A DNA stretch of 64,000 nt from a bacterium (GCA_035527835.1 DATKZS010000109.1:819-64818), one strand, 5' to 3'; counted from the first letter of the stretch, positions 1 through 17,159 are shown. The notes: generated from the letters alone by a model not told the origin. Translations and numbers: made by a program.

Positions 1-42
1 AAAGGTGGTTGGTGGTACTTAATCATAATCTGTTAAGATTCC

Positions 43-1179
43 TTAGGCAATCGCATCGTTTATTCCCCACTTCGGCGGATACCAATAATTGATTTTATTT
101 AGTTTGGGTTTGAAAATCTGCTTAATCCTTTTCCTCTTGTTGTTACCTTGAATATCCGGATGAGCAATCCTCGCATATTTAGATATTTCGCAAAAAAGAT
201 TCTGGCAATCAACAAGCTTAAGTCTTCTGCCCCAGATAGTCTTAAATTGTATATCGAGCATATTGAAAAATTCATCCTGTCTTTCTGTAACCATCCTTAT
301 GAGATCCATCTCGTTAATTCCACCTAGATCGGAGAAGCACTTTCTAATCCCATCAATAGCTCCCGGCCCAGGGATAACAAATTGCATTTCAGAGAAGTTT
401 AAGACCTTACTGTAGTTAATATCGGTAACTAACTGAAAGGCCAGGAAGTCTCCTATTAGAGGATAAAATTTCAGTAGCTCAAAGGCATGCTCCATGCTTT
501 CAGACTCTGATAATTTTAAGGGAAGATCGTCCTCAATCATCATTTCAATTAATCTTAATATGTTTCTATGTTTCCTTTTAAGACGTAACCCTTTCGCCCT
601 TGAGGGCATGATATAAGCGGCAGAGAAAATTGGGGATCCTGAACGCATCGCTTTCATTAATATCGAATCAAAGCATTTATATGAATAATCAGCATAATTA
701 ATTGTTCCAACTTCCTTGCTTATTATTTCCCATGTCTCGATCTTGTTGAATAGCCTAAAAAGCAATATTCGAAACACGGTATCACTATTAGACCAATCTC
801 CATTATAAATTACATTTCTTATCATATACTGGCTCACGCGGTCAGATGCCCGATATGCATTTGTAAACTTGTATTTCTGTAGAATTTTATCTTCTGTCCA
901 TGGGGGCCTTTCGTTTGAAAGTCTTCTGAAAAATATATTTTGTCTTTCAGCCGCAAACCTCCAAAAAGTCTCAAACACTTTTGTCGGCTTTGCTGGAAAT
1001 AAGCGGGAATAAAGATCGGCATTGTTCAGTTGTTTACCATAATGCTCCTTTTCTTCAAATGCCTCAAACGATCTCTGCAATGGAGTTTCAAAGGCATTAC
1101 TATTATTAATAAGAGATGATTCGGATTTTATCCCCCCTTTTTTCATGTCTTTTCCGCTTCTTTGTTCTCTTTGTTCCAA
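43..1179 (-). CDS. hypothetical protein (378 aa) in low-GC island; possibly nucleotide/DNA-modification related
   Basis: Long ORF in a region of clearly lower GC than the rest of the window, with an AT-rich, Lys/Asn/Ile-rich composition. Its 3' end overlaps the next ORF's 5' end by 37 nt. I could not assign any family with confidence. Confidence 0.5.
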   Translation of the reverse strand: MEQREQRSGKDMKKGGIKSESSLINNSNAFETPLQRSFEAFEEKEHYGKQLNNADLYSRLFPAKPTKVFETFWRFAAERQNIFFRRLSNERPPWTEDKILQKYKFTNAYRASDRVSQYMIRNVIYNGDWSNSDTVFRILLFRLFNKIETWEIISKEVGTINYADYSYKCFDSILMKAMRSGSPIFSAAYIMPSRAKGLRLKRKHRNILRLIEMMIEDDLPLKLSESESMEHAFELLKFYPLIGDFLAFQLVTDINYSKVLNFSEMQFVIPGPGAIDGIRKCFSDLGGINEMDLIRMVTERQDEFFNMLDIQFKTIWGRRLKLVDCQNLFCEISKYARIAHPDIQGNNKRKRIKQIFKPKLNKINYWYPPKWGINDAIA

Positions 1180-1547
1180 TCAGGAATTGTCTCCTTAAGC
1201 TTACTAATGAATTCTGAAGCATCTTTCTTTTTGACCTTGCCTGGAGCCGCAACTGTTGCTATGCAATGCACAGTTGTGAGCTGCAATCCCATTTCATGCG
1301 CCATGAACTGTCCCAATTGATAAAGGCCGAGATAATTTCCATATGCCCTTTCAAAGATGTGTTGCTTCGCGTAAAGTCCGATCACGATAAGATCGTTCTC
1401 CTCAGGAGAAAACAAGACATGCTGAAGGCAAGGAAAGCCCCTTCGCCTTTGATGAGAATGATCCAAGGCCGGGTCAAATATCGCTGCCTGAAGCGCGCTT
1501 CGGCGATGGTTATCTTTGTCTACAAAGGTTTCTATTATATGATCCAA
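1143..1547 (-). CDS. nucleoside 2-deoxyribosyltransferase-like (NDT/DNPH1-fold) protein, 134 aa
   Basis: The segment NDLIVIGLYA...AHEMGLQ...APGKV resembles the NDT core NDIMLGVYI...GMELGYA...GK with its catalytic Glu. The gene lies in the same low-GC island and is co-oriented with the 378-aa ORF. Confidence 0.4.
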   Translation of the reverse strand: MDHIIETFVDKDNHRRSALQAAIFDPALDHSHQRRRGFPCLQHVLFSPEENDLIVIGLYAKQHIFERAYGNYLGLYQLGQFMAHEMGLQLTTVHCIATVAAPGKVKKKDASEFISKLKETIPDWNKENKEAEKT

Positions 1548-1586
1548 TTGATTAATTGGATGATCCTTTGAGCTATGAGCGGGGCA

Positions 1587-1803
1587 GGGGGTCAGACCCT
1601 GACTTGTTAGTTTAATTGCTGCCTCCCGCTCCCGATAAAAGCCGTTCCCTGCCGCCTCGCCTCGAAGGCGCGCCGGCGCTTTGGATTGGGGCGGGGGGTC
1701 AGACCCTGACTTGCTGACTTGTTAGTTTAATTGCTGCCTCCCGCTCCCAATGAAAGCTGTTCCCTGCCGCCTCGCCTCGAAGGCGCGCCGGCGCTTTGGA
1801 TTG
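1587..1803. repeat. tandem direct repeat, 2 copies of about 102-111 bp
   Basis: Copy 1 runs about 1587-1688 and copy 2 about 1693-1803. They are nearly identical, differing by an 8-nt insertion (cttgctga) and a few substitutions. Each copy begins with a hairpin-capable GGGGTCAGACCCTGAC. Confidence 0.85.
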
Positions 1804-1976
1804 CGCAAGCTTGCTTGCGCTTTGGTTCCGGGAGCTTGCTCCCGGATGGATTGAAAAGCTTGTTCCGGGGACCGGCAAGCAAGCTTGCCGATCTAAAGCG
1901 GATGATCCGCCTCAGGCGGCGGCAAGCCGCTTGCAGCGGCGCAACCGCGCGCACTCCAAATCGCTCCCCGCCGAAA

Positions 1977-2290
1977 TTTCAAACCACAAACCTCAAACCC
2001 CAAACCTCAAACCTCTTCTCCCCTTGGTGTCTTGGTGGTTTTCTTTCTCTTCTCTCTTCTTCCCCTCTTCTCAATTACCTTCATACCCTTGGTGTCTTGG
2101 TGGTTCTCTTCTTCTTCTCTTCTCTTCTCCCCTCTTCCCCGCCCTTATACCAACATCCATTGCAAACGCAAGCAGATATTATCGGTAAAATTTACCTGTC
2201 GGGGTGCGACGTTTTTACATATTATAGGGGGGCAATTCGGGGTTTGAGGTTTGGGGTTTGTGGTCTGTGGTTGAACAGGGGAGAGGAGGA
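1977..2290. repeat. inverted pair of heptanucleotide tracts, (CAAACCY)n and its reverse complement (GGGTTTG-like), flanking a CT-rich core plus an AT-rich core
   Basis: Sequence caaacctcaaaccccaaacctcaaacc at 1981-2012 is mirrored by gggtttgaggtttggggtttgtgg at 2239-2262. Between them lie two copies of ccttggtgtcttggtggtt (about 2024 and 2090). Confidence 0.7.
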
Positions 2291-2619
2291 GAAAAAAGTG
2301 TATAGGCACGCTCAACAAGGGCCTCGAAAGCGGTTATTTGGGTGCGACGTTTCGTGGCCTGATTTGTGGGACAGAGTGGCCCGGGTTTCAGGCCGCGGGT
2401 GGCCCGGACGGTGGGACGCGGGAGGCCGGAGATTGGGCCAGCCGTGGTCCAGTTCAGGGTCTTCGCGGCCTGGGCCCTGGGCCTCAAAATTCAGGCCACG
2501 GGCGGCCAACTCCCGGATTTCTTTGGACCCCGGGTCTAAAACGGGGGAAAATTTTCCGGGAAACGGCCTCTGCGGCCTAAATTTGACGACAGTGGTCAAG
2601 GCCCAAATTTTTTTCTTCC

Positions 2620-2850
2620 ATTTGCTTCCCCGTGTTCCCCGTTCCTCGTTCCGAGTTCCCCTCTCCCCGTTCCCCGCTCGTCGCCCCTCGCTCCCCGCTC
2701 CTCGCTCCTGGCTTCCTGCTTCTTGCCCCTGGCTTCTTGCTTCTGGATTCTTGCTTCTGGCTTCTGGATTCTTGCTTCTTGCTTCTGGATTCTTGCTTCT
2801 GGCCCCTGGCTGCTGGCTACTGGCTACGGGCTTCTATCGGCTTCGCGGAT
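2620..2850. repeat. long degenerate heptanucleotide tandem tract (CGTTCCC / CGCTCCT / TGCTTCT / GGATTCT units)
   Basis: Period-7 units can be read across about 230 bp. The region is non-coding, and the overlapping ORFs 1731..2873 and 2632..2913 are low-complexity artefacts. Confidence 0.7.
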
Positions 2851-2888
2851 TTGCTCAGCGGCGGCCGGCGTGATAATTTTTATAGGTT

Positions 2889-4586
2889 ATGGCGGAGAAC
2901 AAGATGGAGCTGATGAAGATTGCGGACAGCGGGGACCTGGCGGAGGTTCCGTTCGGTCGGGTGTTTTACCGTTTTTGCCGGGAGAAGCGGACCGGTGTTC
3001 TGGATGTTCGGGACAAGCCGGCGGCCGGGGGCGGCAGGATTTTGAAGCGGGTGATGATGGTTGAGGGCTCGCGGTTCGCGGCTCAGGGCGGGAGCGCGAT
3101 GGAGACGCTGCCGCAGATCCTGTTGGACCAGGGCAAGCTGACCCCGGATGGTTTTGAGGCGCTGAAGGCGGAGTTGAAGGGCGATTGGGGGAAGATGGAG
3201 CAGAAGGTGCTGGCGGGCGCGGTGGTGCCGGGGTCGGAGATCCCGGAGCTTCTGGCGCTGCAGGCGGAACTGAAGGTGCGGTCGCTGCTGTGCCTGTTCC
3301 GCGGGCATTACGATTTCAAGCCCCAGCCGGTTTCGCAGGTTATGGGCAAGCACATCCTGATGCCGTTCGGGGTTGAAAAGGCTCTGTTGGAGGGCGCGAT
3401 CGAGCACTACCCGGCGGCGCGGATCAATAAGGAGTTTCCGGGGATCGAGAAGAAGAATTTCCGGCCGGCGGGTGATTTCAAGGAACGGATCGGCGGGTTC
3501 GGGCTGCCGCCGAGCGTTCTGCGGTGGCTGCGGTCGTCGCCGGAGTCGTTTTCGTGGGACGGGTTGTTGCAGGGCGCGCCGGTGGGTGCGGAGCAGGCGG
3601 CGGTGATGCTGCTGGCGCTTTATTTCACCGAGGTGATCGTTCTGGCGCGGGCGGACGATGATTTTCCGGTGGGGCGGGCATATCTGGAGGCGCGGGAGGA
3701 AGCGGTTTCCCGGGCGGAACAGAAAGAGGAGAAGCGGGCGGCCGCCGAGCTCAAGTCCGACGAGACCAAGGCGGAGAAGGAGGAGAAGAAGGCGGAGAAG
3801 TCGGCGGAGCCGAAGCTCCCGATCGAGGAGATGCTGGACAAGGAGATGAGCGACGCGGAGACGCTCAAGGAGATCGAGCGGCTGCTGACGACGGCGCACA
3901 ATACCAAGGGCACGTATTTCGATTTGCTGGGGCTGAAGGAGAGCACCCCGACCTCGAAGATCAAGCAGGTTTATTTCAAGTTCGCCAAGAAGTTCCACCC
4001 GGACGCGAACCCGGAGCTGTTCAAGGGCGAGGTCAAGGATCGGGTGGAGGAGTTGTTCACGAAGCTCTCCGAGGCCTACAACACGCTCGCGGACGGAGAG
4101 TCGCGGCAGCAGTACGCGAACTCGCTGAAGAGCCAGGTCTCGAAGCAGGACATGGAGAAGGGGCAGCGGGCGATCGAGGCGGAGATGGATTTCCAGAAGG
4201 CGGAGGTCCTGCTCAAGCGCTCGGCGTGGGCCGAGGCCGCGGGGCTGTTGGAGCGCGCGGCGCAGCTCCAGGCGGACGAGCCGGAGTACGGGCTGTACCT
4301 GGCGTGGGCGCGCTACAAGCAGAAGGGGCCGTCGGAGGCCGCGCGGGCGCAGAAGGCGATCAAGGCGGCGCTGGACAAGCGGCCCAAGGTGGCGGACGGC
4401 TATTATTACCTGGGCCAGTTGGCCAAGGACGAGGGGAACCTGGACAAGGCCGAGGAATATCTCAGCAAGGCCTCGCAAATGAAGCCGCACGATATTGACA
4501 TCAAGCGCGAGCTCCAGCTCATGCAGCGGCGCCGGGTCAAGGAGGCCACCACCAAAAAGGGCGGGCTGTTCGGGAAGAAGAAGTGA
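2889..4586 (+). CDS. DnaJ (J-domain) protein with DUF4388-like N-terminus and C-terminal TPR repeats
   Basis: J-domain signature YFDLLGL...KKFHPDANPE with the HPD tripeptide is present. The C-terminus has a TPR-like AxxAxxYY..G...G pattern, and there is a charged Lys/Glu-rich linker. Confidence 0.7.
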   Translation: MAENKMELMKIADSGDLAEVPFGRVFYRFCREKRTGVLDVRDKPAAGGGRILKRVMMVEGSRFAAQGGSAMETLPQILLDQGKLTPDGFEALKAELKGDWGKMEQKVLAGAVVPGSEIPELLALQAELKVRSLLCLFRGHYDFKPQPVSQVMGKHILMPFGVEKALLEGAIEHYPAARINKEFPGIEKKNFRPAGDFKERIGGFGLPPSVLRWLRSSPESFSWDGLLQGAPVGAEQAAVMLLALYFTEVIVLARADDDFPVGRAYLEAREEAVSRAEQKEEKRAAAELKSDETKAEKEEKKAEKSAEPKLPIEEMLDKEMSDAETLKEIERLLTTAHNTKGTYFDLLGLKESTPTSKIKQVYFKFAKKFHPDANPELFKGEVKDRVEELFTKLSEAYNTLADGESRQQYANSLKSQVSKQDMEKGQRAIEAEMDFQKAEVLLKRSAWAEAAGLLERAAQLQADEPEYGLYLAWARYKQKGPSEAARAQKAIKAALDKRPKVADGYYYLGQLAKDEGNLDKAEEYLSKASQMKPHDIDIKRELQLMQRRRVKEATTKKGGLFGKKK

Positions 4587-4644
4587 AGAAATTATGAATT
4601 AATAATTAAGAGTTAAAAATGGCCGGATAAATAAACGCGATTTT

Positions 4645-4693
4645 TCATGACTCATCAATTTTTACTTTTTACTTTTTACCTTTTACTTTTGTC
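4645..4693. repeat. heptanucleotide tract (TTTTACY)n abutting the PHP gene start
   Basis: Sequence tttttactttttactttttaccttttacttttg lies immediately before the ATG at 4694. No Shine-Dalgarno is present. Confidence 0.6.
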
Positions 4694-5245
4694 ATGAAGT
4701 GCGCATTACACGTCCATACCAACCTCTCCGACGCGGCCCTCACCCCGGATGAAGTGTTGAAGATTTACGCGGACCTCGGGTTCGGGATGGTGGCCATCAC
4801 GGACCACGAGTTCCTGCTCCGCGACAACTACGTCGCGCTGGTGCAGGGGGCCAGGCACCGCGGGATGGCGGTGGCGGCGGGGGTCGAGGTGGACTGGGAG
4901 CCGTGGAACTACCACCACCTGCTGCGCATCTCCGGCACGCGCGAGACGCTGCACGTGCTGGCGCACCCCGGCGCGTATTACCTGGAAATCGAGGAGGTGA
5001 ACGCGCGGCTCGGGTCAACGCCTTTTGCCGTGGACGCGGTCGAGGTGACGCACCGCGGCTTTTATACTCCGAAATACGACACGGACCTGATCGCCGCGCC
5101 CAGGATCGCCACCGACGACGCGCACGAGCCCCACGAGTGCGGCCGCGCCTGGATCGAAATGGCCGACACCCGCGACCTGGACCGGGCGCTCCGGGCCGTG
5201 AAGGCCGGGGACTTCGAGGTGAGGTTCTTCAGAAATAGTAGATAG
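4694..5245 (+). CDS. PHP-domain metal-dependent phosphoesterase
   Basis: The N-terminal HVHTNLSD motif and the later ITDHE motif are typical of the PHP family. Confidence 0.7.
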   Translation: MKCALHVHTNLSDAALTPDEVLKIYADLGFGMVAITDHEFLLRDNYVALVQGARHRGMAVAAGVEVDWEPWNYHHLLRISGTRETLHVLAHPGAYYLEIEEVNARLGSTPFAVDAVEVTHRGFYTPKYDTDLIAAPRIATDDAHEPHECGRAWIEMADTRDLDRALRAVKAGDFEVRFFRNSR

Positions 5246-5294
5246 TAGCAAGTAGCCGGTAGCCAGGGAAATGCTTCAATCTGTTTGGCTCTCA

Positions 5295-5398
5295 TTCTTC
5301 AGCCCTGAAAGGGCCAAAATAAGATAGCCCAGGGTTGGCCGTCCTCGGCCTACCCTGGGATATCGGAGCCCATAATATCCTTTTCAGCCCTGAAAGGG
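5295..5398. repeat. two copies of a roughly 30-bp direct repeat, each carrying the hairpin AGCCCTGAAAGGGC
   Basis: Sequence tcttcagccctgaaagggccaaaataagat at about 5295 matches ttttcagccctgaaagggcgaaataaaaat at about 5368. Both lie downstream of the PHP gene. Confidence 0.6.
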
Positions 5399-5576
5399 CG
5401 AAATAAAAATGGTCCCTTGCGCGCGTTATTCGCTGAATAATCATCTTTGATTCGGATACACCACAATAGAGAAGAAAGGCAAGGATGAAGTACAGAGGCC
5501 GATGCAATTAGATTTCATCCTTCACCCTTCATACTTTTTTTACTTTCGCCCCGCCATCCACCGGCGGTGACATATC

Positions 5577-6134
5577 ATGGCTGACGAGCCGAACAGCAAC
5601 GAGCTTTTAGCGGTCCGCCCCGCGGTCACGGCGGGCGACGCGGCCCTGCGGCTCCGGCTCCGCTCGCCCTGGCCGCCTTTTTTTAAGATCAAGATGGAAA
5701 AGACGGAACTCGTCTGGCTCCCGCACTACCTGTTCACGCTGCGGCTCGCGCACAAGGGAAACGAGGAAAAGGTGGAGGCGGCGGTGGACGCGGTGGCCGG
5801 CCATTTCGCGCACTGGAAGGCGGACAAGGAAAGGATGGAGAGCGCGGCGGGTCAAGAGTTCGAGATAGGTTTCATGCTCACGCCAGAGGAGGCGAGGGCG
5901 AGGCTCATCGAAGAATACCGCTGGGTCATGATCGCCACCGCGCTCAAAACGCGCAAGCGCTTCGAGATAAAAGACGTGCTCCCAGGCCCCCGCGCCTACT
6001 ACCCCTTCTTCGCCGGCTACTACCGCTCCCGCCACCAATGGCGCTTCGAGGTCCTCGACGCCGTCTCCGGCCTGCGCCAGGGCGGCAAGGTCCGGGAGGC
6101 GCTGTTGATGGGATGGATGGGATGTGGGGATTGA
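5577..6134 (+). CDS. hypothetical protein (185 aa)
   Basis: High-GC ORF with codon usage consistent with the host. No recognisable motifs. An internal Met (MEKTELVW) is an alternative start. Confidence 0.4.
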   Translation: MADEPNSNELLAVRPAVTAGDAALRLRLRSPWPPFFKIKMEKTELVWLPHYLFTLRLAHKGNEEKVEAAVDAVAGHFAHWKADKERMESAAGQEFEIGFMLTPEEARARLIEEYRWVMIATALKTRKRFEIKDVLPGPRAYYPFFAGYYRSRHQWRFEVLDAVSGLRQGGKVREALLMGWMGCGD

Positions 6135-6275
6135 GACTTGAGGCTTCTGGGATGTATTTAGACCCTGAAAGGACGATTATGATCCGATGGCGCGGTGATG
6201 GTAGAATATCGCTAATTTATATCATGCACTTTTCGAGATCTCGCCGGAGCCAGTTCCGGTCAAGAGGAAATCAAC

Positions 6276-9200
6276 ATGGCCGATGAAAAGGCTATACTTG
6301 AAGCGCTGCTGACCTTCGCTGACACCGTAACGGCCAAGATGACCACTCTGACCCCGGGTGAGCCGGAAGATCAATTGCGCGCCCCTTTTGAAACATTTAT
6401 TCTCGAAGTCGGACGTGTCCTTTTCCGTAAAATCATCTGCACAGGAGAAACCAGGCTGCCGGGCCGGATTGGGAAGCCGGATTACGCCGTCCATGCAGAT
6501 GATCTATTAGCCGGCTACGTGGAAATGAAAGCCCCCGGCGTCGGCGCGGACCCCGGCCGCTTCTCCGGCCACAACCGCGATCAATGGAAACGCTTCAAGG
6601 CGATCCCCAATCTCATCTACTGCGATGGAAATGAATGGGGATTGTTCCGCAACGGCGAAAAGATCGGCTCAATCATCCGTCTATCAGGTGACGTGGCCGC
6701 CGACGGCAAGAAGGCCGTGACCTCGGAGAACGCCCGCTCCATAACAAAACTCCTGACCGACTTTCTTTCCTGGAAGCCCATCATTCCCACGACATCAAAG
6801 GGCGAAATAGACTTCAAGGGGTTCGCCGACCTGCTGGCCCCGTTGTGCCGGATGCTGCGCGATGACGTGACCGACGCGCTCAAGGACCCGCAATCGCCCC
6901 TCGTCCAACTGGCCAAAGACTGGCGCCAGCTCCTCTTCCCCGATGCCCCGGATGAGCAGTTCGCCGACGCCTACGCTCAGACCGTTACCTTCGCTCTGCT
7001 GCTGGCCCGCAGCGAGGGCGCCGATCCGCTCACCCTCGACAATGCCGAGAAAGCCTTATCCGCGGAACACGGTCTGCTCTCCCGCGCACTCCAGGTCTTG
7101 ACCGATCCCGGAGCTCAATCTGAGATCTCCGCCTCGCTCAATCTGATCATGCGCGTCGTCGCCGAAGTCCCGCCCCTCTCGCTGTCCGGCCCTCAAGACC
7201 CCTGGCTTTACTTCTATGAATATTTTCTCGCCGCCTACGACCCCAAACTGCGCAAGGACGCCGGGGCCTACTACACTCCAGTCGAGGTCGTCCGCGCCCA
7301 GGTCCGGCTTATTGACGACCTGCTGGTGAACCGGCTGGGCAAGCCGCTGGGCTTCGTTGATTCCGGAGTCGTCACGCTCGACCCCGCCGCCGGCACCGGC
7401 ACCTATCTGCTCGGCGTCATCGGGCACGCCCTCGGCCGGATCGAGGCAGAACAGGGCGCCGGCGCCGTAGCGGGGATGGCCACCGCGCTGGCCGCCAACC
7501 TCTACGGCTTCGAGCTCATGGTCGGACCTTACGCCGTAACCGAATTGCGAGTCAGCCGCGCACTAAAGAACAAAGGCGCCAGCTTGCCCCCTGAAGGCAC
7601 GCGCGTTTATTTGACCGACACGCTGGAAAGCCCAAACGCCAAGCCGTCAGAACTGCCTTTCTACCTCAAGCCCATCGCAGAGCAGCACGCCAAGGCGCTC
7701 AAAGTCAAGATCAATGTCCCGGTCATCGTCTGCCTGGGCAATCCGCCCTACGACCGCCATGAAGCCGCCACCGCCGAAAACCAGGCCCGCACCGGGGGGT
7801 GGGTCCGATGGGGAGACGACGGCAAGGGTTATCGCCTGAAGGATGACAGGGAAAAAGATGATGAATTTGAAGACGCTATCTTCCATGACTTTCTCGAATC
7901 CGCCAAAGTGGCAGGCCACGGCGTCCACGTTAAAAACCTCTACAACCTCTATGTCTATTTTTGGCGATGGGCACTATGGAAGGTTTTCGAGCACTCAACA
8001 GCATCCGGGCCGGGCGTCGTCAGCTTTATCAGCGCTTCAAGCTACCTCGACGGCGACGCCTTCTGCGGGATGCGCGAATACCTGCGCCGCGTCTGCGATG
8101 AAATCTGGATACTAGACCTCGGCGGCGAAGGGCGCGGCACGCGCAAGAGTGATAACGTATTCGCCATCCAAACGCCCGTCGCCATCGGCATCGCCGTCCG
8201 CTCGGGCAAGGCTAAAAAGGAAAAGCCCGCCAAGGTCCATTACTCCAGCATTGAAGGCGCACGAGATGATAAGCTCGCGAAGCTGGACGCCATTAAAGAC
8301 TTCAAGAGCTTGAAGTGGCTGGACTGCCCCGAAGGTTGGCAGACCCCTTTCCGCCCGGCGGGCAAAGGCAAATATTTCGAATGGCCGCTCCTGACCGATC
8401 TCATGCCGTGGCAACATTCGGGAGCTCAGTTAAAGCGAACCTGGCCTATTTCTCATGAGCAGGAGACGCTTAAGAAAAGATGGCGGGCGCTTCTTGGTTC
8501 AAAGGATATGAAACAAGCTTTTCGCGAAACCAGGGACCGAAAAGTCGTATCTCCTTGTCCCCAGGCACCGCCCAATGGCAATGGTGAAAAAGCATTGAAG
8601 TCCTTGCCCCAAGACTCAGAAGCGCCTCCCATTGTGCGTTATGCTTATCGCTCATTCGATCGCCAATGGGTCTTTGCCGACAACCGTTTAGGGGATTTCC
8701 TGCGCCCGGTACTGTGGGGGATACATGGCGAACGGCAGGTGTATCTGACAAGCCTGTTGACTAAATTCCTCGGTGCAGGTCCGGCGCTCACGACTTGCGC
8801 AGCTATTCCCGACTTGGACCATTTCTCGGCACGCGGGGCTAAGGATGTCGTCCCTCTCTACCGCACCGCAGACGCATCCGAGGCGAATGTCCTGCCCGGC
8901 CTGCTCGATCTGCTGGGCAAAGCGTACAGGCGCGTGGTGAAGCCGGAAGACTTCCTGGCCTACATCTATGGCGCGTTGGCGCAGCCGGCCTTCACTGGAC
9001 GTTTTCGAAACGAATTGGAAACGCGCGAGCTGCGCGTGCCGGTCACGAAGAATGCCGCGCTTTTCGAGAAGGTGCGCGACATCGGCTCGCGATTACTGTG
9101 GCTGCACACCTATGGCGAGCGGTTTGTGCCGAAGGGTGAAAAGCGCGGCCAGGTCCCGCGCGGCTCTGCTAAGTGCACCAAGGCCGTACCTGGCGGTCAG

Positions 9201-9617
9201 GAAGGCTATCCGGAGTCTTTCGAGTATGACGATGCAACGCGGACGCTCCGTGTCGGCGCGGGCGAGTTCCGGCCCGTGGCGCCCGAAGTATTCGCTTTTG
9301 AGGTTTCTGGGCTCAAGGTGGTGCAGTCCTGGCTCAAATACCGAATGAAGAAAGGCGCGGGCAAGAAGTCCTCGCCTCTGGACGACATCCGGCCGGAGCG
9401 TTGGACCAGTCAATTCACCACCGAACTTCTAGAGCTGCTCTGGGTGTTGGAAGCGACGGTGGAAGGTTATCCCGAGCAGGCGCGGCTTTTGGATGCCGTG
9501 ATTAAAGGTCCCTGCTTCACCGCCCATGAGCTGCCCCCCGTCCCGGCCGCCGCCCGCAAACCTCCTTCCTCGCGGGAACTCGATCTTCTTGACCAGATGG
9601 AGCCGGATGAGGGTTGA
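6276..9617 (+). CDS. type IIL (MmeI-family) restriction-modification enzyme: N-terminal PD-(D/E)xK nuclease, N6-adenine methyltransferase, and C-terminal TRD
   Basis: The N-terminus APFETFILEV ... DYAV ... YVEMKAPG parallels the MmeI D-x(n)-EMK nuclease motif. Methyltransferase motif I LDPAAGTGTYLLG and motif IV NPPY (N6A class) are present. A long C-terminal region follows. Confidence 0.65.
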   Translation: MADEKAILEALLTFADTVTAKMTTLTPGEPEDQLRAPFETFILEVGRVLFRKIICTGETRLPGRIGKPDYAVHADDLLAGYVEMKAPGVGADPGRFSGHNRDQWKRFKAIPNLIYCDGNEWGLFRNGEKIGSIIRLSGDVAADGKKAVTSENARSITKLLTDFLSWKPIIPTTSKGEIDFKGFADLLAPLCRMLRDDVTDALKDPQSPLVQLAKDWRQLLFPDAPDEQFADAYAQTVTFALLLARSEGADPLTLDNAEKALSAEHGLLSRALQVLTDPGAQSEISASLNLIMRVVAEVPPLSLSGPQDPWLYFYEYFLAAYDPKLRKDAGAYYTPVEVVRAQVRLIDDLLVNRLGKPLGFVDSGVVTLDPAAGTGTYLLGVIGHALGRIEAEQGAGAVAGMATALAANLYGFELMVGPYAVTELRVSRALKNKGASLPPEGTRVYLTDTLESPNAKPSELPFYLKPIAEQHAKALKVKINVPVIVCLGNPPYDRHEAATAENQARTGGWVRWGDDGKGYRLKDDREKDDEFEDAIFHDFLESAKVAGHGVHVKNLYNLYVYFWRWALWKVFEHSTASGPGVVSFISASSYLDGDAFCGMREYLRRVCDEIWILDLGGEGRGTRKSDNVFAIQTPVAIGIAVRSGKAKKEKPAKVHYSSIEGARDDKLAKLDAIKDFKSLKWLDCPEGWQTPFRPAGKGKYFEWPLLTDLMPWQHSGAQLKRTWPISHEQETLKKRWRALLGSKDMKQAFRETRDRKVVSPCPQAPPNGNGEKALKSLPQDSEAPPIVRYAYRSFDRQWVFADNRLGDFLRPVLWGIHGERQVYLTSLLTKFLGAGPALTTCAAIPDLDHFSARGAKDVVPLYRTADASEANVLPGLLDLLGKAYRRVVKPEDFLAYIYGALAQPAFTGRFRNELETRELRVPVTKNAALFEKVRDIGSRLLWLHTYGERFVPKGEKRGQVPRGSAKCTKAVPGGQEGYPESFEYDDATRTLRVGAGEFRPVAPEVFAFEVSGLKVVQSWLKYRMKKGAGKKSSPLDDIRPERWTSQFTTELLELLWVLEATVEGYPEQARLLDAVIKGPCFTAHELPPVPAAARKPPSSRELDLLDQMEPDEG

Positions 9618-9778
9618 ATTAATCATCCCGGCATACCGCCCATTTATCAGTCAGCTTCCCGATTGATCCCTCTTACATCGGCGCGGCCCGGGGGCCTTGA
9701 ATCGCCGAGGAGAAAAATGGGGGAATCTTACAGATTGTAAAATCCCCGGACAGATAACGGGGCATGGATTGAGCTGGT

Positions 9779-9810
9779 CCGCCACCCTTATTGGGGGGCG
9801 GGCTTTTTTT
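9779..9810 (+). terminator. rho-independent terminator after the RM gene
   Basis: Hairpin CCGCCACCC-ttatt-GGGGGGCGG is followed by a TTTTTTT run. Confidence 0.5.
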
Positions 9811-10000
9811 GTAATGATCCTGCCGGGTTTGGGGGGATGGGGCCGGATGGATTCGCGGGGGCGTTGGCATGGGCATTGCTTTATTAAGGGAATGGCGGTT
9901 TACGCATTGAGATCATGAAGGGATTTCTTGAGGGGATTAACGGCTCGGCTGAGCTCGCCGAAGTCAGGATTTTCAGGATGGGGGAGGAGGGAGCGGCGCC

Positions 10001-11836
10001 GTGGGGAGAGAAATAGGGGACAGGGGTGACCCTCCCAGCAAAGACGGGGACAAGAGTGTCCCCGCCACCGATGGAGGATATTATTCGCGGCTGACGGCTC
10101 GGTTCGTGCTGATCACGCTCACGTGCTCGATCGTTCCGCTGCTGGTGGGCGGGTGGGGGATGTACGCTCATTACTCGCGGTTCGCGCGGGAGCGGACCAC
10201 TCGTCTGTTCGAGACGCGGGTGATGCACCACCGTCGGGTGATCGAGCTTTACCTCGCGGAGCGGAGCTCGTGCCTGAAGGTGCTGGCGGAGATGGAGTCG
10301 GCGGATGAGCTGACGCGGCCGGGTCGTCTGGCGGAGGTTCTCAAGCTGCTGAACGCGGAATACGGCGGGTCGTTCGGGGACCTCGGGGTGATCGGTGACG
10401 ACGGGCGTCACCTGGCGTACGCGGGGCCTTACGCGCTCATGGACAAGAATTACGCGGGGGCGTTGTGGTTTGGGCAGGTGATGGAGAAGGGGATCTACAT
10501 CAGCGACATGTTCACGGGATTCCGGGGTGTTCCGCATTTCGTGATCGCGGTGCGGCGGGATGAGGGGGGGCGGCCGTGGATCCTGCGGGCGACGGTGGCC
10601 ACGGAGCCGTTCCAGGACCTGGTTTCGGGCCTGCGGTTCGGGGAGAGCGGTGAGGTTTACCTGGTTAACCGGGAGGGGGTGTACCAGACGGCGCCGCGGT
10701 TCGTGGGCCGGGTGATGGAGCAGTCTCCGTTCGCGATGCCGGCTTTGCAGCCGGGCACGGTGGTGGAGGTAATGGAAGGGGCGGAAGAGCGGGACAAGAG
10801 TGTCCCGGCCACCATGAGTGTCCCGGCCACCAGGAGTGTCCCGCCCACCATGGCGCGGGGCCAGCGGATCGTGGCGCGGTCTTGGCTTGAGGACCCGAAG
10901 TGGATGCTGGTGGTGAGCCAGGATTACGGGGAGGCGTTCGCGGACGTGGGCCACGCCCAGCGGGTGATGGCGCTGGCGCTGGTTGTTTCGGCGCTGACGA
11001 TCGTGGCGGTGAGCTGGCTCACGGCGCGGCGGATGGCGGGGGCGGTGCGGGAGCGGGACCGGGAAAGGGAGCGTCTTAACCGGAAGCTGATGGAGACGAG
11101 CCGGATGGCGACGATCGGGGAGCTTTCGGCGGGGGTCGCGCACGAGATCAACAACCCGCTGGCGATCATCCTGACGGAGAAGGAGCTGATGGCGGATTAC
11201 CTGGCCGCGGCGGCGGGGGTGGCGCCGGAGTTCCGGGGCCAGCTCGCGGAGTCGCTGGAACAGATCGGGGCCCAGATCCGGCGGTGCAAGCGGATCACGC
11301 AGGGTCTGCTCAAGTTCTCTCGTCCGGCGGGTCCGGCGCTGGAGCGGGTTGATCTCAACTCGCTGCTCAAGGAAATCCTGGACCTGTTGGGGAGAGAGGC
11401 CCGTGGGGACGGGATCGAGTTCCGGGCCGAGTTCGAGGCGGGTCTGCCGGAGATATTGGCCGACCCGGCGGAGCTGCAGCAGGTTTTCATGAACCTGATC
11501 GGGAACGCGATTGACGCGCACGAAGGCCGGAGGGGGGGGACGATCCGGATCGTGACTGCGGCCGGGGACGGCGGCGTCAAGGTGGCGGTCGCGGACAGCG
11601 GGCCGGGGATCAAGCGCGAGCACCTGGACAAAATCTTCGAGCCGTTTTTCACGACCAAGCCGGTGGGCAAGGGCACGGGCCTGGGGCTGTGGATCTGCTA
11701 CAACATATTGCAGCGTCGGGGCGGGAGCATCTCGGTGCGCAGCGAGCCGGGCCGGGGCACGGAGTTCGAGGTGCTGCTGCCGTCGTCGCCCCCGGGGCGG
11801 ACGGGGGAGCACGCGGAGCAGGGGGGCTCGGGATGA
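10001..11836 (+). CDS. sensor histidine kinase (membrane-anchored periplasmic sensor, HisKA and HATPase_c)
   Basis: A TM helix near the N-terminus is followed by the H-box [11 protein letters not shown] and the N, G1 and G2 boxes ([21 protein letters not shown]). Confidence 0.8.
10791..10849 (+). repeat. intragenic 18-nt tandem repeat x3 encoding [18 protein letters not shown]
   Basis: Unit agtgtcccggccacc plus a 3-nt spacer occurs three times. A related 23-mer gggacaagagtgtccccgccacc lies at 10046-10069 in the same gene and contains the GGACA/TGTCC inverted repeat. Confidence 0.7.
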
Positions 11837-11887
11837 GGAGGGCTTGAGGCTTGGGGCTTGGGGCTGCGCCGGAGAGGGGAGTAAGAC
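11837..11887. repeat. heptanucleotide tract (GGCTTGR)n between the histidine kinase and response regulator genes
   Basis: Sequence gggcttgaggcttggggcttggggctg. Confidence 0.55.
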
Positions 11888-12352
11888 ATGATCGGGACGA
11901 AGGTGCTCTTGGTGGACGATGAGAAGGTCTTCACCGACAACATGTCGCGTCTTCTTGAGGCGAGGGGTTACGTGGTCACGGTGGCCGGCAACGGGGAGCG
12001 CGCGGTGCGGGCGCTGCAGGGGGCCGGTTATGACGTGGTGGTGCTGGACCTGAAGATGCCGGGCAAGGACGGGCTGGCGACTCTAGAGGAGATCAAGAGG
12101 CTCGGTCTGCTCACGGAGACGCTGATCCTGACCGGCCACGGCTCGATAGACAGCGCGCTGGCGGCGCTGAAGCTCGGGGCTTACGACTACCTGACCAAGC
12201 CGTGCGAGGTCGGCGATCTGGCGGCGAAGATCGAGGGGGCGTGGAGGAAAAAGGACGAGGCGCGGATGAAGGAGCTTGAGGACAAGACCAAGAAGATCGT
12301 GGAGTCACCGCGCTCGGCGCTGGAGATGGGGCCGAGGAAGGGACGGAGGTAG
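11888..12352 (+). CDS. response regulator receiver protein (stand-alone REC domain)
   Basis: CheY-like fold with LLVDDE, phospho-acceptor motif VVLDLKMPGKDG, and the conserved Lys in KPC. Confidence 0.85.
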   Translation: MIGTKVLLVDDEKVFTDNMSRLLEARGYVVTVAGNGERAVRALQGAGYDVVVLDLKMPGKDGLATLEEIKRLGLLTETLILTGHGSIDSALAALKLGAYDYLTKPCEVGDLAAKIEGAWRKKDEARMKELEDKTKKIVESPRSALEMGPRKGRR

Positions 12353-16226: not shown

Positions 16227-17159
16227 ATGGGTAAGGCAAATAAGCAAAAGCCCGATAGCAAGGCAAAGGCTGGATGTTTTAGGTATCCTCTAATTGTTAT
16301 TATTGCCTTCTTTATCTATGCCCCTCCTGTTTGTGTGAGCAAGTCTCAAAACCATATATTCGTAGATGGTCCTTCTGATCTTTATGATATCCATAGCCTG
16401 GCTCGGAGAGGCAAGACCCCTCTTGTCATTATCTACACCCTATTTAGTCCCAAATTGGTGAATTCGATTGATGATGGTAAGACCCCTCTCCATCTAGCAG
16501 CGGCAAACGGCCATACTTTCATGGTTCACTATTTGGTTTGGATAAAGGCTGACGTAAACAATAGGGGTCGAACCACGCCGCTAGAAGAAGCTCTCATCAG
16601 CGCCGCCAATATTAATCGCGCCAACCGCATTGCAAAGTATCTTATTGATCATGGATCTAAAATAAATCCTAAATCGGGTAGAGCGCCATTAAGCGTTGCT
16701 GTTTCCTATTGTAATACAGAAATGGCAAGCTATCTAATTGATAAAGGGGCGGATGTCAATTATGGCTCTCCGATTCTGCTCGCTACTCGTTGTGATGGTA
16801 ACATGTTAAAACTACTTGTGGATCATGGAGCAAATATTAACGCACGTTATAGGGATGGGAGGACTTTCCTGCACCAATTGGTTCTTGAAATGCCGAGTCC
16901 TCGATATGAACTCTTTCCTATACTTGCCGAAAATGGGATTGATCTCAATGCACAGGACGAACAAGGAAATACCTTTGTTCATTTGGCAGTTAATAAGGGA
17001 GATATAAAATTTATAGAACTTGCCATTGAGTATGGCGCTGCTGTGAATATCAATAATAATGAAGGAAAATCTCCTCTTGACCTAGCATTGGAAAAACCCA
17101 AGTATAAGATAACTGAGATTATAATTAACCAGCTGATAAATGAAGCTTCCATAAAATAG
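16227..17159 (+). CDS. ankyrin-repeat protein with N-terminal signal/TM segment (low-GC island)
   Basis: Ankyrin motifs GKTPLHLAAANGH...LV are repeated several times. The region is AT-rich relative to its flanks, and a GGAGGG Shine-Dalgarno precedes the start. Confidence 0.8.
   Translation: MGKANKQKPDSKAKAGCFRYPLIVIIAFFIYAPPVCVSKSQNHIFVDGPSDLYDIHSLARRGKTPLVIIYTLFSPKLVNSIDDGKTPLHLAAANGHTFMVHYLVWIKADVNNRGRTTPLEEALISAANINRANRIAKYLIDHGSKINPKSGRAPLSVAVSYCNTEMASYLIDKGADVNYGSPILLATRCDGNMLKLLVDHGANINARYRDGRTFLHQLVLEMPSPRYELFPILAENGIDLNAQDEQGNTFVHLAVNKGDIKFIELAIEYGAAVNINNNEGKSPLDLALEKPKYKITEIIINQLINEASIK

Follow-up and report, generated by a model that had tools for sequence, protein, structure and literature searches.

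Results

Genes at the locus

We analysed a stretch of 64,000 nucleotides from a bacterial contig (GCA_035527835.1 DATKZS010000109.1:819-64818; hereafter the window, with positions counted from its first letter), in which a gene for a predicted single-chain restriction-modification (RM) enzyme of 1113 amino acids (aa) is preceded by a gene for a PHP-domain phosphoesterase and by a gene for a 185-aa protein of an unnamed family. Open reading frame (ORF) calls confirmed the three ORFs, their common direction and the coordinates given in the original prediction for this locus (Table 1). The intergenic gaps measure 331 bp between the PHP gene and the 185-aa gene, and 141 bp between the latter and the enzyme gene. 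The enzyme is encoded by a single uninterrupted ORF with the Shine–Dalgarno sequence GAGGA at 6264–6268, 7 nt 5' of its ATG. The gene is certainly real, as more than 4600 homologs were found, the best 120 of which are 68–100% identical over the full length.

Table 1. Features of the locus in window coordinates (REase, restriction endonuclease; MTase, methyltransferase; TRD, target recognition domain; AF2, AlphaFold2; pLDDT, predicted local distance difference test)
Feature	Position	Strand	Basis
PHP-domain phosphoesterase gene, 183 aa	4694-5245	+	ORF; Pfam PHP PF02811
185-aa protein gene, unnamed family	5577-6134	+	ORF
1113-aa (123.4 kDa) REase-MTase gene, very likely Thermus family, TspGWI/TaqII branch	6276-9617	+	ORF; PADLOC; TaqII/TaqIII similarity
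N-terminal PD-(D/E)XK endonuclease domain, aa 1-170	6276-6785	+	Conservation; AF2 topology; Foldseek to DrdV
Catalytic P68-D69	6477-6482	+	Invariant D69
Catalytic E83-M-K85	6522-6530	+	Invariant E83, K85
Helical connector (HsdM-N-like helical domain), aa 171-305	6786-7190	+	All-helical AF2 model, H180-303
Gamma-class N6-adenine DNA MTase domain, aa 306-700	7191-8375	+	Pfam N6_Mtase; DrdV/LlaGI/LlaBIII alignment
MTase motif I DPAAGTG, aa 369-375	7380-7400	+	
MTase motif IV NPPY, aa 489-492	7740-7751	+	
Type-ISP-type TRD, aa 701-1060	8376-9455	+	Pfam Type_ISP_C
Poorly conserved C-terminal tail, aa 1061-1113, with stop codon	9456-9617	+	Conservation; pLDDT

No second methyltransferase or defence gene was detected within about 10 kb of the enzyme gene by Pfam searches of the source contig or by PADLOC, which upholds the original description of a lone gene with neither partner methyltransferase nor companion defence genes. 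A scan for promoters and terminators returned no more sites than were obtained in shuffled sequence, and an Rfam scan of window positions 1–12000 gave no match at E ≤ 0.1.

Domain architecture of the enzyme

The Pfam family N6_Mtase matches residues 313–501 of the enzyme (E = 2.7e-7), and Type_ISP_C (PF18135) matches residues 708–1054 (E = 7.5e-72) with its entire model covered (positions 1–342 of 342). The PADLOC model REase_MTase_IIG (PDLC03631) matches the protein end to end with 1213 bits, and three further PADLOC models (PDLC03621, PDLC03597 and PDLC03051) match its MTase region only. Judging from their lengths and matched coordinates, PDLC03621 appears to represent DrdV, and PDLC03597 and PDLC03051 appear to represent Type ISP enzymes. 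The isolated N-terminal 321 residues match no Pfam family at E ≤ 10. The D...EMK nuclease module and the NPPY-type methyltransferase motifs that the original prediction had pointed out are present (P68-D69, E83-M-K85, DPAAGTG and NPPY).

Conservation was assessed in an alignment of 27 homologs with identities down to 46%. The nuclease residues D69, E83 and K85 and the upstream E58 are invariant in this alignment, as are the segment GNPPYDR (488–494) and, in motif I, D369, P370 and G373–G375 (DPAxGTG), the fourth position of the motif being A, V or C. The original prediction had allowed that the nuclease residues might prove to be missing on alignment; they are intact, and invariant, so that doubt is removed. 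The TRD is conserved among the homologs nearly as well as the MTase domain, and the C-terminal tail shows the lowest conservation of all segments (0.44–0.54) together with pLDDT below 50.

A full-length AF2 model built from 38 homologs was used for the nuclease domain only. Its residues 1–250 are usable (block means of pLDDT 57–89, mostly at least 70), and the N-terminal topology is alpha-alpha-beta-beta-beta-alpha-beta-beta-alpha. D69 immediately precedes predicted strand 2 (70–74), E83 ends strand 3 (77–84), K85 is one residue past that strand, and E58 is two residues beyond strand 1. This layout agrees with the one described for MmeI, where D70, E80 and K82 are accompanied by E51 (PMC2731913). 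The top Foldseek match is DrdV (E = 5e-12), whose endonuclease-only chains 7lvv_D and 7lvv_C were matched with a template modelling (TM) score of 0.69 and a root-mean-square deviation of 4.0 Å. Nuclease and MTase are joined by about 135 residues that form a helical connector, with counterparts in the helical domain described for TspGWI and in the connector of DrdV.

The C-terminal region of about 620 residues had been described as unusually long and as a possible seat of an extra domain. The length arithmetic was right, as 621 residues extend from NPPY to the C-terminus, but the length is not unusual, the corresponding region of TaqII having about 630 residues (NPPY at 472–475 of 1105). Domain prediction in this region, which the original prediction had recommended, found the complete Type_ISP_C TRD, and the idea of an extra domain is refuted by the full coverage of residues 708–1054 and by the equality in length with TaqII. 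As read from the sequence profiles, the C-terminal half of the enzyme is the second half of the MTase followed by a Type-ISP-type TRD and a variable tail of 50 residues, with no extra domain.

Relationship to the Thermus enzyme family

In a tblastn search against plasmids, two Thermus aquaticus YT-1 plasmids were among the best matches, with 44.5–45.8% identity over 96–99% of the query. The underlying genes are CP020572 51144–54461 (3318 bp, 1105 aa) and CP020571 6537–9842 (3306 bp, 1101 aa), which have been described as taqIIRM, encoding TaqII (GACCGA 11/9), and taqIIIRM, encoding TaqIII (CACCCA 11/9), respectively (PMC5587805). In global alignments with TaqII and TaqIII, 1068 columns are aligned at 46% identity; taken domain by domain, the identity is 36% in the nuclease, 36% in the connector, 50% in the MTase and 51% in the TRD. 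Within the nuclease domain, the TaqII-side segments VGKPDLGV...GFVELKAPG align with IGKPDYAV...GYVEMKAPG of the window enzyme. The spacing D69-X13-E83-X-K85 is that of TspGWI (D58/E72/K74, the targets of site-directed mutagenesis) and of TaqII (D66/E80).

The TspGWI subfamily of the Thermus enzyme family, with the members TspGWI, TaqII, TaqIII and RpaI, is defined by a typical PD-(D/E)XK motif and the motif DPA(V/M)GTG in an REase-MTase fusion of about 120 kDa, whereas the TspDTI subfamily has a D-EXE motif (PMC3751577). The window enzyme is likewise a single fused chain of 123.4 kDa with a PD-(D/E)XK motif, DPAxGTG and NPPY, and full-length similarity to the subfamily. Subfamily enzymes cleave 11/9 nt downstream of asymmetric sites of 5–7 bp, methylate one strand and respond in their activity to S-adenosylmethionine or sinefungin, and by homology the window enzyme would do likewise. 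The TRDs of the Thermus family have been called "remarkably similar" to those of Type ISP enzymes, and the Thermus family, which cuts at 11/9, and the MmeI family, which cuts 21/19 nt from the methylated adenine, have been treated as separate families (PMC5587805).

Taken together with the evidence on acquisition given below, these results make it very likely that the protein is a solitary, horizontally acquired single-chain RM enzyme of the TspGWI/TaqII/TaqIII/RpaI branch of the Thermus family, of Type IIC/IIG/IIL (Type IIC denoting the fused chain, Type IIG the effect of S-adenosylmethionine, and Type IIL methylation of one strand). The original prediction of a single polypeptide combining nuclease, N6-adenine MTase and TRD stands, the architecture being that of Types IIC, IIG and IIL. 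Its designation as an MmeI-family Type IIL RM enzyme is correct as to class and intact nuclease and has to be amended as to family, which is that of the Thermus enzymes.

Predicted mechanism and recognition site

By analogy with TaqII, TaqIII and TspGWI and with the solved structure of DrdV, we infer that the protein is enzymatically active and propose the following mechanism. The MTase and the Type-ISP-like TRD would clamp an asymmetric site of 5–7 bp, with an adenine flipped into the NPPY pocket. In host DNA the adenine would be methylated on one strand only, which would be sufficient for protection. In unmethylated foreign DNA the PD-(D/E)XK domain, which the helical connector would keep at a distance of about one turn of the helix, would make a double-strand cut about 11/9 nt downstream, and this probably only once several enzyme-site complexes have assembled. 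One-strand methylation of an asymmetric site, and cleavage about 11/9 nt to its downstream side, are thus the probable activities of the enzyme.

The recognition site was predicted by mapping the contact positions of published rules (PMC5587805) onto the enzyme through the alignment with TaqII. The predicted specificity positions are K720, N767, D807-F808-L809-R810, D848 and S851-A852-R853. TaqII K688 corresponds to K720, which would read C at position 2; TaqII H817 corresponds to D848 (as D828 in TspGWI), which would read G at position 3; and TaqII S820-x-R822 corresponds to S851-A-R853, which would read G at position 4. G619 and N627, the counterparts of TaqII G586 and N594, would confer no specificity 3' of the adenine. 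The remaining pairs, D807/R810 (TaqII S776/R779) and N767/F808 (TaqII S737/R777), fall outside the rules. We tentatively propose a TspGWI-like core 5'-..C-G-G-(m6A)-3', the two 5' positions being unreadable. The specificity residues differ from those of the known enzymes, D807, F808 and N767 matching no characterised member even though D848 is TspGWI-like, and the site therefore probably differs from those of TaqII, TaqIII and TspGWI, the last of which recognises ACGGA and cuts at 11/9.

Points against the assignment and alternative classifications

Several observations weigh against the assignment to the TspGWI/TaqII branch or against details of it. The AF2 model of the whole protein is of low quality (mean pLDDT 52.5), and for this reason the architecture of the MTase and TRD is taken from sequence profiles and not from the model. 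The S-adenosylmethionine-binding motif is DPAAGTG and not the DPA(V/M)GTG quoted for the TspGWI subfamily. Characterised relatives reach no more than about 46% identity, and the clade at 68% identity or more is known from sequences. The rules applied to the site come from a set of three Thermus and ten Type ISP enzymes, and the residue combinations at positions 0 and 1 (N767/F808, D807/R810) are not covered by them. Lastly, the sole promoter-like site is weak and overlaps the start codon of the enzyme gene.

A profile of the 27 homologs was used to search the PDB. It matched DrdV (7LO5, E = 9.4e-51), LlaBIII (1.4e-44) and LlaGI (9.5e-44), always through the MTase and TRD; nothing else was found below 0.01, and neither MmeI nor BpuSI was reached at E ≤ 1. 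The comparisons with MmeI and PglX that the original prediction had proposed were made with Pfam, PADLOC and this profile, and neither matched.

The original prediction had offered, as an alternative to an RM enzyme, a BREX PglX-like relative that kept its nuclease. PglX proteins are MmeI-like MTase-TRD fusions, and a related possibility, that of a protein functioning as a methyltransferase only, with a vestigial nuclease, finds some precedent in TsoI, where the MTase activity dominates the REase activity (PMC3751577). We nevertheless consider a PglX-type or other methyltransferase-only protein very improbable, because no PglX/BrxX model of PADLOC matches the protein and because the nuclease triad and E58 have remained invariant down to 46% identity. 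BREX genes, whose presence close by had been named as evidence against a stand-alone RM enzyme, were looked for with Pfam and PADLOC: PglZ, BrxC and BrxL were found neither in the neighbourhood of the enzyme gene nor among the large ORFs of the window. At 80 loci of enzyme homologs in other species, no neighbouring gene is conserved, the largest family of flanking ORFs occurring in 8 of the 80 and reflecting local synteny.

Membership in the MmeI family itself, with cleavage 20/18 nt away, is very unlikely. The two enzymes share their domain order, their single-polypeptide form without partner MTase and a PD-ExK motif with an upstream glutamate (E58, compared with E51 of MmeI), and the predicted strands place the catalytic triad much as has been described for MmeI (PMC2731913). 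The MmeI family also resembles what is predicted for the window enzyme in methylating one strand and in shifting specificity by a few substitutions in the TRD. However, none of the Pfam families MmeI_N, hel, Mtase, TRD and C matches even at E ≤ 10, MmeI is out of reach of the PDB profile search, and the spacing D70-X9-E80-X-K82 of MmeI (PMC2731913), an enzyme with a reach of 20/18, differs from D-X13-E-X-K. The TRD belongs to a different family, that of Type ISP, and outside the generic MTase core there is no detectable relationship; similarity throughout the protein including endonuclease and TRD, by which the MmeI family is delimited (Morgan 2009), was not found. The 46% full-length identity is to TaqII and TaqIII, whose family is distinct from that of MmeI.

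The automatic NCBI name of the protein and its homologs, "type ISP restriction/modification enzyme", and the homology of MTase and TRD to LlaGI and LlaBIII would suggest an ATP-driven translocating nuclease-methyltransferase like LlaGI, but this is extremely unlikely, as only the MTase-TRD parts align (LlaBIII 839–1497 and LlaGI 675–1290), the protein has 1113 aa compared with 1406–1578 aa, and it contains no helicase Pfam domain, no Walker A and no DEAD/DEAH motif, the place of the translocase being taken by the helical connector. The NCBI name is therefore wrong, as the translocase that defines Type ISP enzymes is missing.

The PHP and 185-aa genes

The original prediction had also suggested that the PHP gene and the 185-aa ORF could be accessory to the enzyme. 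In the 183-aa protein Pfam detects PHP (E = 2.9e-9) and, below its threshold, PHP_C. The 185-aa protein has no match in Pfam, NCBIfam, PADLOC or PHROGs, and no significant fold match appeared when its model was compared with the PDB (best E 0.08, TM no higher than 0.27). By profile, its family comprises 279 clusters at 50% identity, nearly all of them stand-alone proteins of about 170–200 aa, plus shorter fragments.

Neither gene has a homolog within 10 kb of the enzyme homolog at any of the 80 loci. In the related loci L085, L086, L087 and L088, a short PHP gene is directly followed by a gene for a homolog of the 185-aa protein, with identities of 66% and 55%. In L085 and L086 the pair is preceded by a DnaJ-TPR gene, as in the window, and followed by an Ldi-family gene and no restriction enzyme; L088 too has the PHP and 185-aa genes without an enzyme gene. 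The contig of P0133 carries DnaJ-TPR and PHP genes without the enzyme and has no 185-aa gene called; the next genes there are GmrSD_N and HEPN, both in the opposite orientation. The accessory role is refuted by this pattern of co-occurrence: both genes are members of a conserved DnaJ-TPR/PHP/185-aa block of the host lineage and have no part in the RM system.

A three-gene defence module, with the PHP protein as accessory nuclease or phosphatase, is accordingly hardly credible. The genes are co-directional and adjacent, and PHP domains occur in some defence-associated ATPases (a TrlF-family match is weak, E = 6e-5, and far below the cut-off), but the module is missing from the homolog loci, PHP-185aa (usually after DnaJ-TPR) or DnaJ-TPR-PHP is found elsewhere without the enzyme, the gaps in the window measure 331 and 141 bp, and the genes differ in composition. 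The fraction of G and C at third codon positions (GC3) is 0.89 in the DnaJ gene, 0.89 in the PHP gene, 0.84 in the 185-aa gene and 0.87 in a downstream kinase gene, compared with 0.70 in the enzyme gene. The co-occurrence data and the GC3 contrast together set the host block apart from the enzyme as a separate foreign gene.

The DnaJ-TPR/PHP/185-aa block occupies window positions 2889–6134 (+); on other metagenomic contigs it covers L085 1090–4027 and occurs also in L086 and L088. Its DnaJ-TPR protein has a sub-threshold match to DUF4388. The gap between the PHP and 185-aa genes is 39–78 bp in the relatives (39 bp in L085), for which reason the two are probably co-transcribed. The genes found 3' of the block vary: the RM enzyme gene in the window, an Ldi-family gene in L085 (4039–5628), and GmrSD_N (Type IV restriction) and HEPN_RiboL-PSP genes on the contig of P0133. 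The position after the DnaJ-PHP(-185aa) block may be a variable region or a hotspot for defence genes.

The spacer between the PHP and 185-aa genes in the window (5246–5576) contains two copies of a 33-nt repeat beginning TTCAGCCCTGAAAGGGC, at 5298 and 5383. The repeat can form the hairpin GCCCT-GAA-AGGGC, and a third, short copy lies at 6163–6176, upstream of the enzyme gene. It may be a small inserted repeat element.

Probable acquisition of the enzyme gene, and nearby genes of foreign composition

The GC3 of 0.70 in the enzyme gene, compared with 0.84–0.92 in its flanks, suggests horizontal acquisition. Homologs of the enzyme elsewhere are found on plasmids or beside AbiE and transposase genes; a tblastn search of the enzyme against phage genomes gave no match. 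Between 4500 and 10100 no direct or inverted repeats of the kind that would delimit a mobile element flank the enzyme gene, the only duplicate being the 33-nt repeat in the PHP-185aa spacer. Since the synteny with L085 does not extend past the DnaJ-PHP-185aa block in either direction, it gave no boundaries for an insertion.

Near its start, the window contains a gene on the minus strand (43–1179, 378 aa) that matches Pfam HMUDK_hel, the helical domain of 5-hydroxymethyl-dU DNA kinase (E = 6e-107), and phrog_2396. This gene lies right at the beginning of the source contig; its GC content is 37% and its GC3 0.375, whereas the window as a whole has 63% GC. In the sister contig L002 a radical-SAM fragment adjoins the HMUDK_hel gene. 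The gene in the window appears to be a phage-type gene for DNA hypermodification and lies some 5 kb upstream of the enzyme gene. Further genes of foreign composition are those for an ankyrin-repeat protein at 16227–17159 (+; 310 aa, GC 41%, GC3 0.36) and for a 380-aa ORF without family match at 1731–2873 (+; GC 57%, GC3 0.58), because of which we regard the first 20 kb of the window as a mosaic of host and acquired genes.

Homolog diversity and variation at predicted specificity positions

The homologs considered here, the best 120 of more than 4600, come from many phyla. On a scaffold at least 68% identical, 132 sequences show about 48 different combinations at the predicted contact positions: K or G at 720; H, D or N at 848; SxR, RxS or AxR at 851–853; and DFLR, DYLR, SRPR or DRPx at 807–810. 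Such combinatorial variation is the pattern expected of enzymes that change specificity by few substitutions. The same alignment shows two hypervariable patches, residues 511–540 and 745–785. The former is an insertion-prone loop after NPPY. The latter is a loop of the TRD that occurs in a few discrete cassettes (PCPQAPPNGNG, TYRVSLNENND and LPPxKAxLKP), which co-vary with the motif at 807–810 (DFLR/SRPR/DRPx).

The clade is found mainly in uncultured bacteria of more than 15 phyla, with 68–78% identity over 1100 residues. We tentatively suggest, at somewhat less than an even chance, that it constitutes a natural library for the recognition code of Type ISP and Thermus-type TRDs, in which the window enzyme (K/D/SAR/DFLR) would represent a new site. 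If each combination corresponds to a distinct specificity, the clade would be a ready-made set for reading and engineering the TRD code.

Comparison with known systems

The locus is an ordinary solitary Type IIC/IIG/IIL RM gene of the well-studied Thermus family. The value of the analysis is mainly corrective, as it places the enzyme in the TaqII/TspGWI lineage and shows it to be neither a relative of MmeI or PglX nor part of a three-gene system; the NCBI label is misleading for a protein without translocase. Beyond that, the large conserved clade with its variable contact residues could help to extend the residue-to-base code for Thermus-family and Type ISP specificities.

Among the systems compared, LlaGI and LlaBIII share homologous MTase and TRD domains with the window enzyme, and their TRD contact positions are transferable to it. 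In Type ISP enzymes, unlike in the window enzyme, a RecA-like ATPase/translocase separates the nuclease from the MTase, and cleavage follows head-on collision. DrdV of Deinococcus wulumuqiensis (Type IIL, CATGNAC, 10/8; PDB 7LO5/7LVV) is the closest solved structure and has the same four-part order of nuclease, helical connector, MTase and TRD. It differs in that it is 84 residues shorter and only 17–18% identical in structural alignment; its profile match covers the MTase and TRD, the N-terminal 290 residues being undetectable by sequence profile.

The closest likeness is to TaqII and TaqIII, which are of nearly the same length (1105 and 1101 aa, compared with 1113 aa), collinear with the enzyme over 96–99%, equipped with the same Type-ISP-like TRD and likewise encoded by solitary genes. 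In contrast to TaqII, TaqIII and TspGWI, the window enzyme belongs to an uncultured host other than Thermus, and its gene is chromosomal.

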